Shown here: piece after piece, positions 8,829-42,650 of the stretch
Position numbering within the stretch: the first letter of the stretch is position 1
Layout of the letters: every line of letters starts with the position of its first letter
Position numbers and translations under genes: made by a program
Notes under the pieces: model-generated
Database searches by the model: none
Told to the model about the DNA's origin: nothing
What the model saw: only the letters and a program-made list of their open reading frames with translations
Source of the DNA: an uncultured Spirochaetales bacterium
GTDB taxonomy: Bacteria > Spirochaetota > Spirochaetia > SZUA-6
Reading direction: 5' to 3'
Assembly: GCA_964596425.1 (NCBI GenBank)
Contig: CAZQTC010000007.1
Location: 10,294 to 74,293 of the forward strand
Length of the DNA stretch: 64,000 nucleotides

Positions 8829-10061
8829 CTATTCGTACCTCAGGGCTTCCTGAGGGGGAAGATTTGCAGCCCTCGAGGCGGGATAAAATCCGGAGAGCAG
8901 CCCCGTTACTACGGAGAGTAACAGAGCAATTACTCCTGTAGCCAGATCGATTATAACAGGCCAGCGGGCAAAATGCCCTATTATATATGAGGCAAGAAAA
9001 GAGAGCCCCAAACCAAACAAGCCACCCCCACCACAGAGAAGGAGGGTTTCGATCAAAAACTGAGCCATAATCTGACTCTTCTTGGCACCGAGAGCCTTTC
9101 TTATACCTATCTCTCTGGTCCTCTCTTTTACGGAAACAAGCATTATATTCATAATCCCGATAGCCGCAACGAGAAGGGCAATTCCGGCAAGTATGGCAAC
9201 ACCGGCTGTTACCGAACCTACCACCTTGTTCACCATCTCCAGTTGTGCCTTCATCTCCGTAACAGAAAACTTATCGTATTTTCCATCCCACTTTCCGTGA
9301 TTCCTGGCAAGAACCGCCAACACTTTCTTTCTTACAACTCCGACCTCCGATAAATTTTTAACCTTGGCAAGAACAGTTTTATATCCCCTACGCATAAAAG
9401 AGAACCTCTTAAAGGCCCCTATTGGCACAACCACTACATTGTTGTAAGTCTTATCAGGATCGGAAATGGAAATTGTATCGGTTTTCTCCTTTCTGGCAAG
9501 AACCCCTATAACCTGAAAGGGGGTTCCAAAGGCAATGAAAAACCTTCCAATAGGATTAAACCCCGGAAAAAAGGTGTCAGCCACAAGACTCCCTATTATC
9601 GCAACCTTACTCTGAGCCCTTACCTCCTCATCTGTAAATATCCTTCCAGCCTTTAATTTATACTCCACAAAATTTATATAGTTCCTGTTAGTTCCAACCA
9701 CAGAAATCTTCTTCTCAAGATTTCCTACCCGAACCACCGTACTTGCAGAAACAATAGGAGCAATATCCTCCATTTCCGGAACATGCTCTTCCAGACTGCG
9801 TAAATCACCGTCACTAATGTATTCAATCCTGTAATGGCGTCTCGTTGAATACGCCGTTTCGTAGTTCGGTGATATATATATCGTATTCGCAGACAGACCC
9901 TCAAATTCCTTCATAATGATAGCCTTACCACCGTTACCCGCAGCAATAACCGTAACCACAGAGGCTATTCCAATTACAATACCCAACAGAGTCAAAAATG
10001 TACGAGATTTGTTCGAGGCAATTGCAGAGATGGCTTCGCCGAAGAGAATCTTAAACATCAC
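8829..10061 (-). CDS. ABC transporter permease, MacB/FtsX family (MacB_PCD periplasmic domain + FtsX 4-TM)
   Basis: N-terminal TM, large periplasmic domain, and C-terminal FtsX-type bundle with the ERTREIGIRKALGA motif. It overlaps the upstream permease gene by 4 bp. Confidence 0.8.
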   Translation of the reverse strand: MMFKILFGEAISAIASNKSRTFLTLLGIVIGIASVVTVIAAGNGGKAIIMKEFEGLSANTIYISPNYETAYSTRRHYRIEYISDGDLRSLEEHVPEMEDIAPIVSASTVVRVGNLEKKISVVGTNRNYINFVEYKLKAGRIFTDEEVRAQSKVAIIGSLVADTFFPGFNPIGRFFIAFGTPFQVIGVLARKEKTDTISISDPDKTYNNVVVVPIGAFKRFSFMRRGYKTVLAKVKNLSEVGVVRKKVLAVLARNHGKWDGKYDKFSVTEMKAQLEMVNKVVGSVTAGVAILAGIALLVAAIGIMNIMLVSVKERTREIGIRKALGAKKSQIMAQFLIETLLLCGGGGLFGLGLSFLASYIIGHFARWPVIIDLATGVIALLLSVVTGLLSGFYPASRAANLPPQEALRYE

Positions 10062-11269
10062 TCAATCCTTAAAGCATCTACGGGCATCATTTTCGAGGCC
10101 TTATATGCGGGATATATCCCAAACACAAGTCCTATAAGAGTAGAGATTCCAAGGGCAAACAGTACATAGAGAATGTTCATTAAAAAATTCCACTTTAGTA
10201 TACTGCAGGCCAGTGCTGCTATTCCCACACCAAAAACAACCCCAACTCCACCCCCCAAGAGGCAGAGAGTAATCGCCTCTATCATAAACTGGACAAGGAT
10301 ATCCCGACTGTTAGCCCCCACCGCCATACGTATTCCTATCTCTCGGGTACGCTCTGTAACTGTTACAAGCATTATATTCATAATTCCAAGCCCACCAACT
10401 ACAAGTGAAATAGAGGCTATTACCAGTATCAACATACTTATCACATTAAGTACCCTATCCACAATTTTAATATAAGAATCCATCTTATCTATTCTAAACC
10501 GCTTTTCTCCCCTCAAATATCCGTACCTATTGATAAGATAGTTGTCTATCCTATCTATGGCGTTATCAACATTACTCATAGAATCGAAACGCATAAGATA
10601 GATCCAATATTTTATTTCTCGCCCGCCCCATATAAGTCTTGCCATATAACTTGAGGGAATAAAAATTGTGCTGTTATCGGAACCATCGCTCAAAAAACCC
10701 CTCTCTAACCTTTCGGTTAACCCCACCACGGTATAATCGTGTCCTAGCATACTAATCTGCTTACCGATGGGATCCGTATCCCCGAACAGATCCTCGGCTA
10801 TATCCGGCCTTATAACACAGACTTTCCTGTGTAACCTTATATCCTCGGGAACAAATGCTCTTCCCTTTGCCACTTTTATTGCAAATATCGAAAAATAATC
10901 GGGGCTTACTCCGAAAACAGAAACATCCTCTCCCTTTCCATGGTAACGTACCTTTACCCATCTGTTCAGTATGGTACTCTTGTACACAAGACCGGGCAGA
11001 TACCTATTAAAAAAATCCACATCACTCTCTCTAAGAAGAACCCTGTGCTCTCCCCTTACATAGGCATCCCTATTAGGCCTAACCCAGATAAGATTAGAAC
11101 CAAACTTACCCATTTCTCCCGATATCGAAGTCCTAAAGGACAAACCAACAATAGAAATCGCTATTAAGCTACCAACCCCAAAGTTTATACCAAGCATGGT
11201 GAGAAAAGAACGAATCTTGTTGGAGGCTATAACCTCAAATGTCTGTCGTATACCCTCTGCAATTTTCAT
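10058..11269 (-). CDS. ABC transporter permease, MacB/FtsX family (second, non-identical copy)
   Basis: Same architecture, with the ERTREIGIRMAVGA motif. It is distinct in sequence from the downstream copy, so the permease is likely heterodimeric. Confidence 0.8.
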   Translation of the reverse strand: MKIAEGIRQTFEVIASNKIRSFLTMLGINFGVGSLIAISIVGLSFRTSISGEMGKFGSNLIWVRPNRDAYVRGEHRVLLRESDVDFFNRYLPGLVYKSTILNRWVKVRYHGKGEDVSVFGVSPDYFSIFAIKVAKGRAFVPEDIRLHRKVCVIRPDIAEDLFGDTDPIGKQISMLGHDYTVVGLTERLERGFLSDGSDNSTIFIPSSYMARLIWGGREIKYWIYLMRFDSMSNVDNAIDRIDNYLINRYGYLRGEKRFRIDKMDSYIKIVDRVLNVISMLILVIASISLVVGGLGIMNIMLVTVTERTREIGIRMAVGANSRDILVQFMIEAITLCLLGGGVGVVFGVGIAALACSILKWNFLMNILYVLFALGISTLIGLVFGIYPAYKASKMMPVDALRIE

Positions 11270-33789: not shown

Positions 33790-34200
33790 ATGAGTAATTG
33801 TAAAACACAAAACAAAGAACAACCCACTCTAAAACTTTTTCACAACTCCACGGTAATTTTTACAAGTACAAAAAAGTGGCTTTACCCACTTTTCGATCTG
33901 GAGAGTTTTCTAAAAGACTATTTAACCCACCACCCAGAGGCCACGAGCGATCTATACCTGGAAGACAAAATCGTAGGTAAAGCCTCGGCTTTTCTGATAG
34001 TATATATGGGAATACCCAAGGTTCACGCCCACATTCTAAGTAGTTACGGAAAAAAGGTTTTCGAAACCTATTCCATACAATACACCTATGACACATTGAT
34101 AGAGAGAGTATCCTGCAAAACAGAGGAACTATTAAAAAATGTAAGAGCACCGAAAGAGGCGTATAGAATAATACAAAATCTAAGGAATAATAACACTTGA
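33790..34200 (+). CDS. Hypothetical protein (136 aa)
   Basis: Open reading frame with good coding potential and no recognisable motif. It sits between the thioesterase and csoR. Confidence 0.3.
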   Translation: MSNCKTQNKEQPTLKLFHNSTVIFTSTKKWLYPLFDLESFLKDYLTHHPEATSDLYLEDKIVGKASAFLIVYMGIPKVHAHILSSYGKKVFETYSIQYTYDTLIERVSCKTEELLKNVRAPKEAYRIIQNLRNNNT

Positions 34201-34240
34201 CTATAGCCTACATAAGCACTAAGCTTTACAGAGAGTTGCT

Positions 34241-34258
34241 ATACCCCCCAGGGGTGTA
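34241..34258. promoter_or_regulatory. CsoR-box-like GC-rich pseudo-palindrome ATACCCCCCAGGGGTGTA upstream of csoR
   Basis: It lies 28 bp upstream of the csoR start. It shares an identical 15-mer (ATACCCCCCAGGGGT) with the site at 37120. It resembles the C-tract/G-tract inverted repeats bound by CsoR-family repressors. Confidence 0.5.
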
Positions 34259-34285
34259 AAAAATGCAATAATAACAGCACAAAAG

Positions 34286-34591
34286 GTGTATAAAATGGAA
34301 TCAAAAGCGGAAAAAAAAGGTCCCCACCCGATAAATAAACAAGCACTGAGGCGATTAAAAAATATCGAGGGTCAGGTGAGAGGACTTCAAAGAATGGTAG
34401 AAGAAGAACAGTACTGCGTAGATATTATAACTCAGATATCCGCCGTACGGGCAGCTCTCAACAGTGTCGGAATGCTTATCCTAAAGCGTCACATCGAGAC
34501 ATGTGTATCGGACGCAATTAAAGCGGGCGGAGAGGAAAAAACCCATATAATTGACGAGCTCATGAGTGTACTATCCAGAGCAAAACTATAA
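34286..34591 (+). CDS. csoR: CsoR/RcnR-family metal-sensing transcriptional repressor
   Basis: All-helical, ~100 aa, with ligand residues in the YCVDI ... HIETC context (C-H-C fingerprint). Confidence 0.8.
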   Translation: MYKMESKAEKKGPHPINKQALRRLKNIEGQVRGLQRMVEEEQYCVDIITQISAVRAALNSVGMLILKRHIETCVSDAIKAGGEEKTHIIDELMSVLSRAKL

Positions 34592-34619
34592 GTATCTCAT
34601 CCCCAATCGTCCTGTAACT

Positions 34620-36767
34620 CTACATACGTACCCTCAAAAGTCTTGCATTTATTGCAACAATAACCGTGCTAAGAGACATAAGTACTGCCCCGGCGGCAGG
34701 ACTCAAAAGTACCCCAAAACTATACAGAACACCCGCAGCCAGTGGAATGGCAAGCGCATTGTATCCTGTTGCCCATGCAAGATTCTGAACCATCTTTCTA
34801 TAGGTTGCCCTGGCAAGTTTTAGTATCTTAACAACATCGAGAGGGTTACTCCTAACAAGTACTATATCGGCGGTTTCTATAGCAACATCACTACCGGCAC
34901 CAATCGCAATTCCAACATCGGCACTTGCAAGAGCCGGAGCGTCATTAACCCCATCCCCCGTCATTGCAACAACAAAGCCACGCGATTTCACCTCTTTAAC
35001 CCTACTAGCCTTTTCATGCGGCAGAACCTCCGCAAAAACTTCACCTATACCAATTTCTTTTGCAACCCAATTTGCAACCTCTCTGTTGTCCCCGGTTAGC
35101 ATAATGGTACGAACTCCCATACCCTTTAACTTTTCAACAGCCAATTTTGATTCCTCCCTCACAACATCAGCAAGGGCAATTACCCCCTTGGGTTTCCCAT
35201 CGAGAAGGAGATAAACAACCGTCTTGCCCTGTTTAAAGAGATTCGTGATTCGACTATCATCCATATCCACACCCTTATCCTTAAGGTAACCGGGACTAAC
35301 CACCATCACCTCCCTTCCGTCAACACGTCCGATAGCACCCCTACCAGGTATTGCCTTAAAATCCGTTACAGGCAAAACTCTGTTTTCAGGAACATCAATA
35401 GAAATATCAGTCAGATTATCATCCCTCTTTTCGGACGCCTTTTTGGACTCTTCACCGGAAACCATATCACTAGCGCTTGCCTCAACAGAGCGAGAAGTTA
35501 GCGAAAGTACAATACCTTTAGCAATCGGATGCTCCGAGTTCGCCTCCACCGAGGCCGCATAACGTAAAATCTCTTCCTCTCTCATAGAGTGATCCAACAC
35601 AACAATATCGGTTACCCCAAATCTTCCCTCTGTCAGGGTCCCCGTTTTATCAAATATCACAGCTTGAATATTTCTCGCATGCTCAAAGGCCGCCCGGTTT
35701 CGAATTAGAAGTCCGTTCTTAGCAGAAATCGCAGTGGATACCGCAACAACCAGAGGAACAGCCAGACCAAGTGCATGGGGGCAGGTTATAACCATAACCG
35801 TCACAGTGCGCTCCAGAGCAAAGGCAAAATCCTTATGCACAAGGGCAAGCCAGACAAAAAGGGTAATCCCCCCTGCCCCTAAAGCTATAAGGGTAAGCCA
35901 TAAAGCCGCTCTACTGGCCAGGTCTTGACTTCTGGATTTGCTCTCCTGCGCCTGTCTAACGAGTTTTACCACCTGAGAGAGATAGGAATCCTCACCTGTC
36001 TTTTTTATCTCTACCACCAAAGAACCCTCTCCGTTTACGGCGCCACCTATAACTTCATCGCCCTCCCGTTTAACAACGGGCTTGGACTCTCCGGTAAGCA
36101 TTGCTTCGTTTACAGAACTCTCGCCCTCAATAACCATCCCATCTACCGGAAGCTTTTCTCCCGGTTTTACAAGTACTCTATCTCCGACCTTTAAATTCTC
36201 TACAGAAACATCAATTACCCCTCCATCCGGCAACAACTTATGGGCCTCTGAGGGCATCAGCTTTGCCAACTCTTCCAAAGCCTTAGAGGCTCCCATAACC
36301 GACTTCATCTCGATCCAGTGACCCAAAAGCATAATATCCACAAGGGTTACAAGCTCCCAAAAAAACACCTTCCCGGGAAGTCCAAAAACAACCACACTGC
36401 TATAGACATAGGCTGTGGAAATTGCAAGTCCTATGAGACTCATCATCCCGGGTAGTTTCTTTCTAAGCTCCCTAACAAGCCCACTCAAGAATGGCCAACC
36501 ACCGTAGAAAAATACAAATGTAGAAAGGCCAAAAAGAATATAACCGTCTCCCTTAAAGGCAATTAATTCTCTAATCCCGAAAAGTTTCTGAATCATAGGA
36601 GACAGTGCCAGTATAGGAAGGGTGAATACAACAGAAATCCAAAATCGCTTGCGGAAATCAGCTACCATGTGAGCATGGTGCGAGCTATGAGCGTGTTTGT
36701 GATCGTGATCCTCGGGACTATGCTGCATGTGTTCATGATGTTCGTGATGAGTATGTTTATTATCCAT
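34620..36767 (-). CDS. copB: Copper-translocating P1B-type ATPase with His-rich N-terminus and CPH motif (CopB / P1B-3-like)
   Basis: N-terminus [39 protein letters not shown] motif (ITCPHALG). DKTGT phosphorylation site. GDGVNDAP hinge. No CxxC HMA domain. About 35 aa are inserted in the nucleotide-binding domain. Confidence 0.9.
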
Positions 36768-36785
36768 ATATCAAACCTCCTTATC

Positions 36786-37028
36786 CTAATCCATGAGATC
36801 TTTTTTCATCCGAAGGTACTCTTCCCTATCAATTTCTCCTCTGATATAGCTAGCTTTAAGCTCTTCAAGGGGGTCCATATACAATTTCCCCCTGCCAATC
36901 CCCCGCCTTATGAGAAAAACGATAAGAAAAATCACCCCAACTACAAGAAGAACCATTATCCCAAACATAATCCATCCATAAAGCCCCCAGTAGCCGGAGA
37001 CCCAACTGCCAATTCTATTCCCCATCAT
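36786..37028 (-). CDS. SHOCT-domain small membrane protein
   Basis: N-terminal TM (WIMFGIMVLLVVGVIFLIVFLI) followed by the C-terminal SHOCT motif YIRGEIDREEYLRMKKDL. It is 18 bp upstream of copB and probably co-transcribed with it. Confidence 0.6.
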   Translation of the reverse strand: MMGNRIGSWVSGYWGLYGWIMFGIMVLLVVGVIFLIVFLIRRGIGRGKLYMDPLEELKASYIRGEIDREEYLRMKKDLMD

Positions 37029-37119
37029 TGTTTCGTCCCCCCTCTAATTCCATACTCTTCCTCCTAATGTAACGTCGAAACTCAAAACAACCGCATCTCG
37101 TGGAGACCTCAGCCATACC

Positions 37120-37136
37120 ATACCCCCCAGGGGTCT
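37120..37136. promoter_or_regulatory. Second CsoR-box-like site ATACCCCCCAGGGGTCT in the SHOCT-copB / eamA divergent promoter region
   Basis: Identical 15-mer to the csoR-proximal site. It lies about 92 bp upstream of the SHOCT-copB start on the minus strand. Confidence 0.5.
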
Positions 37137-37255
37137 CGCACGCACATACATAATACAAAAGTTTACCAAAGGAGTCAACTTAAAAACCAAAAAACTACCC
37201 CCAAAAACAAAAGCAACACTAGATTCAACCCTTAAATGATACTACTATCAGAATA

Positions 37256-38185
37256 ATGAAAAGGCCCAAAGACCGCTCACTAATATTACTCTCGTACATA
37301 ACAATATATGTCGTGTGGGGCTCAACCTACTTTTTCATTAAAATGGCCGTAAAAAGCATTCCCCCTCTGGGGGTAGTGGGCATACGCTTTCTTATAGGAG
37401 GCTTTTTCTTCCTTCTCATTGCCATACTAACAAGACGCCTAAGTCCCCCACCAACCATAAAACAAGTTGGAGCCTCTATACTACTGGGAAGCTTACTCCT
37501 CCTGGGAGGAAACGGACTAATCTCGTACGCGGAGAGACAGGTAGATAGCTACCTGGTGGCCCTAATAATAGCCTCTACACCCCTTGTTGTTGCTATCTTT
37601 GACAGAGTACTTCTGCAAAAAAGAATAACATCGGTAAGAATTATCGGGATAATACTCGGAGAAATCGGAGTAGCACTACTGGTATACAACGGAAAATCAT
37701 TCATCACCAGTCTAAATCCCGAGATAGCGATGGTTATCCTTGCAATCCTATTATGGGCTCTGGCAACGACACTCGGACATAAATTCAACGTATACTCGGA
37801 CAATCTGGTAAACAGCGGGATACAAATGCTCTTTGCCGGAATCGTTGCCCTATCAGCAAGTCTTGTACTCGGAGAACTAAGCGTGAACTCTCCAAGGGAA
37901 ATTACAATCTCCTCCCTGCTTGGCCTTGTATACCTAACCGTAATAGGCTCCCTTGCTTTTAGCGCTTACACATACCTTCTTATCCATGAACCTGCCTCCA
38001 GAATTGTAAGCTACTCACTGGTAAATCCCGTGATCGCTGTAATTTTAGGCTTTTTTCTCGGAAACGAAACACCTGTTCCCTACTTTGCGATAGGTCTTCC
38101 ACTCATACTCGCAGGATTACTAGCCCTACTCTACGGAGAAACACTTTTAAAAAAATTAAAAATTGTCCTATCAAAAAAATCATAA
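37256..38185 (+). CDS. EamA/DMT-superfamily transporter (two EamA repeats, 10 TM)
   Basis: Duplicated 5-TM halves. Conserved G-rich motifs appear at the ends of both repeats (GNGLISYAER; EPASRIVSYSLVNPV). Confidence 0.8.
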   Translation: MKRPKDRSLILLSYITIYVVWGSTYFFIKMAVKSIPPLGVVGIRFLIGGFFFLLIAILTRRLSPPPTIKQVGASILLGSLLLLGGNGLISYAERQVDSYLVALIIASTPLVVAIFDRVLLQKRITSVRIIGIILGEIGVALLVYNGKSFITSLNPEIAMVILAILLWALATTLGHKFNVYSDNLVNSGIQMLFAGIVALSASLVLGELSVNSPREITISSLLGLVYLTVIGSLAFSAYTYLLIHEPASRIVSYSLVNPVIAVILGFFLGNETPVPYFAIGLPLILAGLLALLYGETLLKKLKIVLSKKS

Positions 38186-38890: not shown

Positions 38891-38923
38891 AACGCTCCCC
38901 AAACAATCCTCAAAACACTTGAA

Positions 38924-38939
38924 TCCAAAGCGCTTTGGA
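38924..38939. promoter_or_regulatory. Perfect 16-bp palindrome TCCAAAGCGCTTTGGA. A candidate LacI-family operator in the pgmB / GH65 divergent region.
   Basis: Same core as the 24-bp palindrome at 41594. It has the CG centre typical of LacI/CcpA-type operators. It overlaps the ORF-track start of the GH65 gene. Confidence 0.5.
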
Positions 38940-38945
38940 AATATT

Positions 38946-41593: not shown

Positions 41594-41617
41594 GTTTTCC
41601 AAAGCGCTTTGGAAAAC
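41594..41617. promoter_or_regulatory. Perfect 24-bp palindrome GTTTTCCAAAGCGCTTTGGAAAAC between GH65 and lacI. A candidate LacI-family operator, and possibly also a terminator hairpin.
   Basis: Verified as a perfect inverted repeat. It sits 15 bp after the GH65 stop and 29 bp before the LacI gene. Confidence 0.5.
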
Positions 41618-41645: not shown

Positions 41646-42650
41646 ATGATAAAACTATCTGATATCGCAAAAGAACTTAATCTTTCACTCACAACAGTCT
41701 CTAGAGCTCTAAATAATTACAGTGATGTGAGTCCAAAAACCCGAAAACTTGTTTTAGAAACAGCAAAAAGGTTGGGTTATATACCAAACCTATCTGCAAG
41801 GGGGCTTGCTCTTAGAAAGAATCACCTGGTGAGTCTTTTCTATTACGATTATGTTAACGCGGGCCCCTATCAACCATTCACCTTTGAGGTTATAGCGGGC
41901 ATTAGAAAATTTTTCAGTAATACCTCCTATGATCTCATAATGATTCCGGAAACGAGAAGAGGGAGAAAGCCGGAATCTCTAAAAAACATCTGTTACTCCA
42001 GGGGAATAGACGGGCTAATCATCCTTGGCATTCTCACAGACGATCCCTACCTGGACGAGCTAAGGAGTGATTTCATCCCGGCAGTATTTCTAGACTATCC
42101 AATGGTCGGAAAGAAAACCTCCTATGTAGAATCGGATAACATACGGGGATGCAAATTGGCAATTGACTACCTAGTCTCTCAGGGTCACACACGAATTGCC
42201 TTCATAAACGGCCACGATCTGGCTGCTGTCACCCCCGTTAGGCTAAAGGGTTATAAAGAGGGACTTGAAAAGCACAACATAGAGTACGACCCCGAAATTG
42301 TTGAAACGGGTGACTATACTGAGAGAAGCGGATACATAGCAGCCAGAAACCTGTTGCTCAAGAAGAAAGGGATTACCGCCATCTTTGCCGCATCCGATCT
42401 CATGGCAATAGGAGCCATACGAGGCCTAAACGATATCGGACTTAAGGTCCCTGATGACGTAGCTGTGGTTGGGTTCGACGATATACTTCTAGCCGAATAT
42501 TTTCAACCAAGGCTTACAACAATCAGACAGCACAAATTTGAACTGGGTTTCCAGGCTGCAGCGGAACTTCACTGCATAATGGAAAAGCCGGAATACATCC
42601 CCAAGGTAAGAAGGATAAAGGTAGAGCTTATAATAAGAGATTCCGCATGA
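41646..42650 (+). CDS. LacI-family transcriptional regulator
   Basis: N-terminal HTH MIKLSDIAKELNLSLTTVSRALNN, with a periplasmic-binding-fold effector domain. Confidence 0.9.
   Translation: MIKLSDIAKELNLSLTTVSRALNNYSDVSPKTRKLVLETAKRLGYIPNLSARGLALRKNHLVSLFYYDYVNAGPYQPFTFEVIAGIRKFFSNTSYDLIMIPETRRGRKPESLKNICYSRGIDGLIILGILTDDPYLDELRSDFIPAVFLDYPMVGKKTSYVESDNIRGCKLAIDYLVSQGHTRIAFINGHDLAAVTPVRLKGYKEGLEKHNIEYDPEIVETGDYTERSGYIAARNLLLKKKGITAIFAASDLMAIGAIRGLNDIGLKVPDDVAVVGFDDILLAEYFQPRLTTIRQHKFELGFQAAAELHCIMEKPEYIPKVRRIKVELIIRDSA

Follow-up and report, generated by a model that had tools for sequence, protein, structure and literature searches.

Autoregulation by CsoR, together with its repression of copper P1B ATPase operons through G-tract operators with TAC/GTA arms, is established biology. 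Type-2 CsoR operators are G-tract pseudopalindromes in which a TAC/GTA inverted repeat is spaced by 9 bp; the streptomycete consensus is ATATACCCCTNAGGGGTATAT, and the Streptomyces lividans copZA2 site, which is bound in vitro by CsoR, contains ATACCCCCTAGGGGT (PMC3902906). In Staphylococcus aureus the CsoR sites read ATACCtataGGGGGTAC (copA) and ATACCctggGTGGGTAT (copX), and CsoR repression of copXL, the operon of a P1B-3 pump, was shown by electrophoretic mobility shift assay and expression analysis (PMC5947656). Here we describe a csoR and copB locus in a stretch of 64,000 nt (the window; contig CAZQTC010000007.1) from an uncultured lineage that is probably spirochaete-related. We consider it very probable that the CsoR encoded there represses both its own gene and an operon composed of copB, which encodes a copper pump, and a gene for a small SHOCT-domain membrane protein, that it does so via two operators, and that Cu(I) relieves the repression.

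The locus consists of two convergent transcription units, csoR on the plus strand and SHOCT-copB on the minus strand. In the proposed mechanism, each unit would start at a TTGACT-type promoter, and a single type-2 CsoR operator would follow shortly after the likely transcription start. While copper is low, both operators would be occupied by apo-CsoR tetramers, and transcription of csoR and of SHOCT-copB would be blocked. Rising cytoplasmic Cu(I) would fill the Cys41/His66/Cys70 site and take CsoR off the DNA. Upon its release the CopB pump would be made, with the small SHOCT membrane protein alongside, and CopB would export copper by means of its CPH/YN/MSxST transmembrane site and its His-rich N-terminal tail. 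The binding, the copper response and the transported ion are carried over from characterised homologues, and the promoter elements are as read from the sequence. The elements of the locus are as follows.

34197..34225, plus strand: putative csoR promoter, with -35 TTGACT (34197-34202), a 17-nt spacer and a weak -10 TAAGCT (34220-34225)
34241..34255, plus strand: CsoR operator 1 (predicted, autoregulatory), ATACCCCCCAGGGGT, read TAC-N9-GTG; 39 nt upstream of the csoR ATG
34295..34591, plus strand: csoR, encoding a 98-aa repressor of the CsoR/RcnR family (PF02583)
34620..36767, minus strand: copB, encoding a 715-aa P-type ATPase of the predicted copper-exporting P1B-3 type, with E1-E2_ATPase and Hydrolase domains
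35385..35498, minus strand: loop insertion in the N-domain of CopB, Ser/Asp/Glu-rich, about residues 424-461
36666..36767, minus strand: His-rich N-terminal tail of CopB, putatively metal-binding, 14 His in residues 1-34
36786..37028, minus strand: SHOCT gene, encoding an 80-aa single-pass membrane protein with a C-terminal SHOCT domain; first in the operon
37015..37053, minus strand: mini-ORF (open reading frame) encoding MELEGGRNNDGE and a stop, 12 codons preceded by a strong AGGAGG; its overlap with the SHOCT start (ATGATG) is 14 nt
37120..37134, plus strand: CsoR operator 2 (predicted), ATACCCCCCAGGGGT; it reads gACCCCTGGGGGGTATGGTATGG on the transcribed (minus) strand
37150..37178, minus strand: predicted SHOCT-copB promoter, with -35 TTGACT (37178-37173), a 17-nt spacer and -10 TATTAT (37155-37150)

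The repressor and its two predicted operators

A sequence-only reading of the window had pointed to two identical copies of a 15-mer near csoR and SHOCT-copB, proposed that they are CsoR boxes, and claimed that nothing else in the 64 kb resembles them. We find ATACCCCCCAGGGGT exactly twice in the window, at the two listed sites and both times on the plus strand, with no other near-copy in the 64 kb at fewer than three mismatches. The ends given earlier for the two copies (34258 and 37136) overran the 15 nt that they share. Likewise, the first box had been placed 28 bp upstream of csoR, and the distance becomes 39 nt because csoR starts at ATG 34295. This is the most likely start (98 aa; AAAGG Shine-Dalgarno; the same as in the public gene call), not GTG 34286.

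The proposal that the boxes are CsoR sites gained support from their similarity to a characterised operator, from their position and from their conservation. The window box is identical to the S. lividans copZA2 operator ATACCCCCTAGGGGT at 14 of 15 positions. The boxes read TAC-CCCCCAGGG-GTG on the csoR side and TAC-CCCCCAGGG-GTC on the copB side, and this TAC-N9-GT layout fits type 2. A distance of 15 nt separates the start of each from a -10 element, which places them at roughly +9 to +24 from the expected transcription starts, predicted at about 34232 on the plus strand and about 37143 on the minus strand; because of this position after the promoter, bound CsoR would block transcription. 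The SHOCT-copB promoter is sigma-70-like, matching the consensus at 10 of 12 positions. Judged from the sequence, the assignment of both boxes as type-2 CsoR operators is well supported.

We compared the locus with that of a congener (L162; GCA_054040095.1), whose CopB is 81% identical and whose gene order from LacI to Band_7 is the same as in the window. Both boxes recur in L162, where their TAC...GTA arms are complete, and so do both TTGACT elements, the one upstream of csoR together with its TAAG(C/T)T element, while the intergenic DNA around the boxes is otherwise diverged (72-76% column identity). In the related locus L099, ACCCCTGGGGGGTATGGTAT precedes SHOCT-copB and shares 20 identical nt with the copB-side site of the window; in L085 the perfect palindrome ATAATACCCCCGGGGGGTATTAT precedes SHOCT-copB, and no box is found directly upstream of csoR, which there abuts an upstream ORF. 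A Spirochaetales metagenome-assembled genome (L001) carries ATACCCCCACGGGGTGT 38 nt upstream of csoR. Furthermore, we counted the pattern TAC[CT]C-N5-G[GA]GT in the 72 metagenomic loci of CsoR homologues that have enough upstream sequence. A site lies within 260 nt upstream of the homologue in 44 of them, and the density of boxes is 2.3 per kb upstream of csoR homologues vs 0.075 per kb elsewhere, an enrichment of about 30-fold.

The repressor itself matches PF02583 (Trns_repr_metal) over residues 14-94, with an E-value of 1.7e-30 and 105.7 bits against a cut-off of 22.8. Its residues Y40-C41, H66 and C70 align with the Cu(I) ligands (Y-C, H, C) of the solved CsoRs 4M1P, 4ADZ and 2HH7, and among proteins of solved structure it is closest to the Cu(I)-sensing CsoRs of Geobacillus, S. 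lividans and Mycobacterium tuberculosis. The NCBIfam matches are all sub-threshold (RicR, 87 bits vs a cut-off of 175; also FrmR and RcnR), and the copper assignment therefore rests on the ligand fingerprint and on context. With PF02583 membership and the Y-C...H...C pattern, the protein has the sequence marks of the Cu(I)-sensing branch.

Several observations weigh against the proposed regulation. The csoR -10 element matches the consensus at only 3 of 6 positions, which is why the automatic promoter scan did not report a csoR promoter, and the csoR start is predicted from the sequence. The right arms read GTG and GTC where the consensus has GTA; this is the sole feature off consensus, and mutations of GTA in S. 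lividans abolished CsoR binding (PMC3902906). In L001, the closest named relative, no box was found upstream of copB in the 363 nt before the contig end. The ion of CopB-type pumps, Cu(I) vs Cu(II), has been disputed in the literature, which cites a 2018 study titled 'Cu+-specific CopB transporter'. Finally, an exact pair of 15-mers is by itself not statistically unusual: mononucleotide shuffles of the window yield a mean of 6.45 such pairs, against about a dozen independent repeated 15-mers in the actual sequence. Since the repeat statistics are insignificant alone, the operator reading rests on context and conservation.

These statistics fit the view that the pair arose by chance, or that it is a generic GC-rich palindrome without a part in regulation. 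Either explanation is nonetheless extremely improbable, as both copies lie at an equal offset from the promoters of copper genes, the box matches a characterised operator and is conserved in L162, L085, L099 and L001, and its pattern is strongly enriched upstream of csoR homologues. The palindromes could instead act as RNA, either as hairpins in the 5' untranslated region that affect stability or translation, or as terminators, and the predicted 5' untranslated regions do allow a hairpin at each box (-10.9 to -13.9 kcal/mol). Yet the z-scores of the two folds, -2.3 and -1.2, are modest, neither hairpin is followed by a U-run, and what is conserved goes beyond base-pairing, namely the TAC/GTA arms and the G-tracts of CsoR DNA recognition; we regard an action at the RNA level as very improbable. 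Its terminator version was rejected, there being no T-run and no call at either site in the terminator scan. As for the signal, the family is functionally diverse, and the sub-threshold NCBIfam matches of the window protein would be compatible with a protein that senses persulfide like CstR, nickel or cobalt like RcnR, or formaldehyde like FrmR, and with a pump that responds to that signal. The C-H-C set with its preceding Tyr is, however, that of the Cu(I) CsoRs, to which the best structural relatives also belong; the one transporter in the proposed regulon is a copper-type P1B ATPase, and the operator is of the Cu-CsoR type 2. A non-copper signal is accordingly improbable, and we retain copper-responsive repression of both units by CsoR as the preferred reading.

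The CopB pump and its N-domain loop

CopB carries the core motifs TGES225, DKTGT373, SEHP411 and GDGVNDAP604 and scores 620 bits against TIGR01511. The published signatures of the P1B-3 class are CPH, GYN(X)4P, MSXST and a His-rich N-terminal extension (30-100 aa) in place of CxxC HMA domains. The window protein has C329-P-H in the metal-binding transmembrane helix, GYNALAIP (668-675) and MSLST (697-701) in the last two transmembrane helices, and the His-rich tail listed above, with no HMA Pfam match. No CxxC occurs in its 715 aa, of which C329 is the only Cys. The earlier description of a His-rich, CPH-type ATPase without CxxC was thus accurate, and its placement among the P1B-3 (CopB) pumps is supported by all four sequence signatures.

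Members of this CopB subfamily, 60-69% identical, are spread across Desulfobacterota, Bacteroidota, Ignavibacteria, Acidobacteriota, Betaproteobacteria, Chloroflexota and the archaeon Methanoperedens. Because this level of identity spans very distant lineages, ancient transfer of copB is plausible, and the distribution suggests frequent horizontal transfer. A CsoR gene was found nearby in only 1 of the 80 CopB loci (L001-L080).

The N-domain of CopB contains an insertion, estimated earlier at about 35 aa, whose presence and size hold up. It sits between the SEHPIA helix and the following beta-strand, where the window protein has 41 residues vs 7 in Archaeoglobus fulgidus CopB (3SKX) and about 7 in Legionella pneumophila CopA. 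The net extra length is about 34 aa relative to 3SKX and about 38 aa relative to the window protein's relatives. The insertion was not found in any of the 80 closest CopB relatives (60-69% identity) or in the solved LpCopA, HMA4 and AfCopB structures; the loop of L162 is 27 aa shorter than that of the window and about 11 aa longer than those of the other relatives. The inserted segment (38 aa) is rich in Ser, Asp, Glu and Lys and has no aromatics, a composition that points to disorder. It is probably a lineage-specific, rapidly evolving surface loop and not a domain, and the sequence comparison gave no sign of a function for it.

The SHOCT protein and metal efflux

The SHOCT gene and copB are placed in one predicted operon, in which an 18-nt gap separates the SHOCT stop from the copB ATG and AAGGAGG lies 8 nt before that ATG. 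The SHOCT partner reported upstream of copB is real and shares its operon, but the claim that the two are translationally linked does not stand, as the genes do not overlap and copB has its own Shine-Dalgarno. The SHOCT protein scores 27.1 bits against PF09851, whose cut-off is 27.0, which makes it a borderline match (residues 52-79 of 80); its orthologues score 28.4, 35.8 and 30.1 bits. A short Gly/Trp/Tyr/Met N-terminal tail, in the peptide MMGNRIGSWVSGYWGLYGW, is followed by one transmembrane helix, by RRGIGRGK and by the SHOCT hairpin. The positive-inside rule predicts an outward tail and a cytoplasmic SHOCT domain.

Two orthologues (P0002 and P0003) carry a signal peptide and the window copy has none. 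The ATG of the mini-ORF (37053) aligns with the start codon of the 111-aa, signal-peptide-bearing orthologue of L162, which suggests that the window lineage lost about 68 nt including the signal peptide; the mini-ORF is probably what is left of the ancestral start codon and signal peptide. In many members of the family the natural start lies at this MMxG position and no signal peptide is present, and the 80-aa protein is found unchanged on independent public contigs. For these two reasons the window gene is probably functional. The alternative would be a decaying passenger with no role in copper handling, its signal peptide lost by the 68-nt deletion. In its favour are the signal peptides of the two orthologues, the ancestral start that now opens only a 12-codon ORF, and the Pfam score at the threshold. 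We consider this unlikely in view of the recurrence of the protein and the natural MMxG starts, of the position behind a CsoR box that is conserved in the L085 and L099 operons, and of the metal-efflux clusters that surround family members in every context sampled (see below).

The association of such proteins with metal efflux extends beyond the window. Of 80 loci centred on CopB and drawn from many phyla, about 17 have a small SHOCT gene within 4 kb and on the same strand as copB, and 24 of the 25 SHOCT matches of the iterative search lie on the copB strand. The small SHOCT gene stands behind a CsoR box in three related loci; in L085 and L099 both the small protein and a second SHOCT protein of 206-233 aa are encoded between the CsoR box and copB. 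A search with the single sequence of the SHOCT protein returned only 3 proteins, and a profile search at least 7,941 clusters, none of them with a functional name. We looked up eight family members, selected solely for their long contigs; since five of the eight come from one study, these contexts are not independent. A P-type ATPase lies within 4 kb on the same strand in 4 of the 8, and metal genes (RND ACR_tran, HMBD, YHS/TRASH, Metal_resist or DUF302) surround the SHOCT gene in all 8. In 123 members, the 16-18 residues before the transmembrane helix consist of 27% Gly, 24% Met, 16% Phe, 11% Trp and 5% His. Three of these residues, Met, His and Trp, serve at periplasmic Cu(I) sites, for example in CusF.

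Two tail types recur in the family (P0004-P0123): MFHNFMFGGMWFGW, without a signal peptide, and a lipoprotein-like GW(D/N)HMMGYGGYGGMFMW after a Cys lipobox. In relatives the copB unit also includes genes without a counterpart in the window. They encode a DUF302 protein, an 'LDCC motif putative metal-binding protein' (NF040898) and a second SHOCT protein, which is larger, secreted or membrane-bound, and has the domain at its C-terminus (L085, 6302-6706 and 9044-9745; L099, 646-1035 and 3508-4128; L001, 2420-2581 and 4682-5026). The founding SHOCT paper makes no mention of metals, and no function is known for the family. Its metal context in the literature consulted amounts to passing mentions, one of a SHOCT gene that adjoins the Cuniculiplasma/Mia14 copper island and one of a silver-induced SHOCT membrane protein in Haloferax.

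We tentatively raise the possibility that the single-pass SHOCT proteins formerly grouped as DUF2078 are dedicated, copper-induced accessory subunits of P1B metal-efflux ATPases. Their architecture may comprise an outward N-terminal tail rich in Gly, Met, Trp and His, one transmembrane helix and a cytoplasmic SHOCT hairpin. In such an arrangement the protein may serve as a membrane-tethered acceptor for exported Cu(I), or as a small regulatory subunit; other P-type ATPases have small regulatory subunits such as KdpF, FXYD and sarcolipin. If the accessory reading is true, the window is an instance of a pump partner directly under CsoR control. Should SHOCT proteins prove to be pump partners or periplasmic copper acceptors, this would be the first function for the single-pass family and would add a component to bacterial copper export.

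Surroundings of the locus and comparison with known systems

The stops of csoR and copB lie only 28 nt apart (34592-34619) in convergent orientation. The plus strand of this interval has no recognisable terminator and the minus strand just a weak structure; transcripts that read through from one unit would be antisense to the other. On the far side of the SHOCT-copB unit, a gene for an EamA-type transporter (37256-38185) diverges from it. On the csoR side, the TGA stop of a DUF1893/TM1506 gene (33790-34200) sits within the csoR -35 TTGACT; this gene, for which no copper link is known, also adjoins csoR in L162. The locus had been called an island, a term that our data do not support: GC content is 0.45-0.49 across copB vs 0.39-0.45 in the flanks, with no sharp break, no integrase or transposase is found nearby, and the order from LacI to Band_7 is shared with the congener.

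The window contains other repeats. Two copies of an 18-bp perfect palindrome, TCCAAAGCGCTTTGGA (core CCAAAGCGCTTTGG), are present. The first (38923-38941) lies at the start of a GH65 glycoside phosphorylase gene and of a divergent HAD/beta-phosphoglucomutase-like gene; the other (41597-41615) lies 30 nt upstream of the gene of a LacI-family regulator (41646-42650), of which the pair are probably the operators. An exact 20-nt direct repeat, ACAAGCATTATATTCATAAT, is found at 9136-9155 and 10365-10384, 1.2 kb apart.

The core finding is routine, in that CsoR, two operators and a CopB pump can be annotated with confidence in an uncultured lineage, and it shows that the CsoR-CopB pairing is not confined to Firmicutes. 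Of more use is the lead, open to testing, that the locus offers on a large family of small SHOCT membrane proteins. Like other SHOCT domain proteins (PF09851; the small membrane form was DUF2078), the window protein ends in a bi-helical motif of about 28 aa, LxxLKxxYAxGEIxxEEYxxxKxxL, which here follows a single transmembrane helix.

The pump resembles the P1B-3 prototypes, A. fulgidus CopB (3SKX/3SKY) and Enterococcus hirae CopB, in its CPH, GYN(X)4P, MSXST and His-rich N-terminus, and its ATP-binding domain aligns with that of A. fulgidus CopB at an E-value of 2e-92, differing in the longer loop after the SEHPIA helix. As in S. aureus copXL and copB-mco, a His-rich, CPH-type CopB shares its operon with a small envelope accessory protein behind a CsoR promoter box, the box of the window being predicted. 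In S. aureus this protein, whose gene lies downstream of the pump gene, is either the lipoprotein CopL or a multicopper oxidase; in the window it is a single-pass SHOCT protein whose gene lies upstream. Moreover, the loci of S. aureus lie on mobile elements, and the window locus is chromosomal and syntenic.

The regulatory part of the locus is like the CsoR systems of S. lividans (csoR/copZA1/copZA2), Bacillus subtilis (copZA), S. aureus (copA/copX) and Listeria monocytogenes. It has the same TAC...GT(A) G-tract pseudopalindrome with 9 nt between the arms, and one site is predicted to serve the repressor gene and another the operon of the efflux ATPase. Unlike in those systems, the right arm is GTG or GTC instead of GTA, the operators lie 15 nt downstream of the -10 and do not overlap it as those of L085 and L099 do (6 nt), and csoR is convergent with the pump operon and not inside it. 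Together with the long N-domain loop of the pump, these degenerate arms, the operator position and the convergent order are minor variations on the known CsoR systems.

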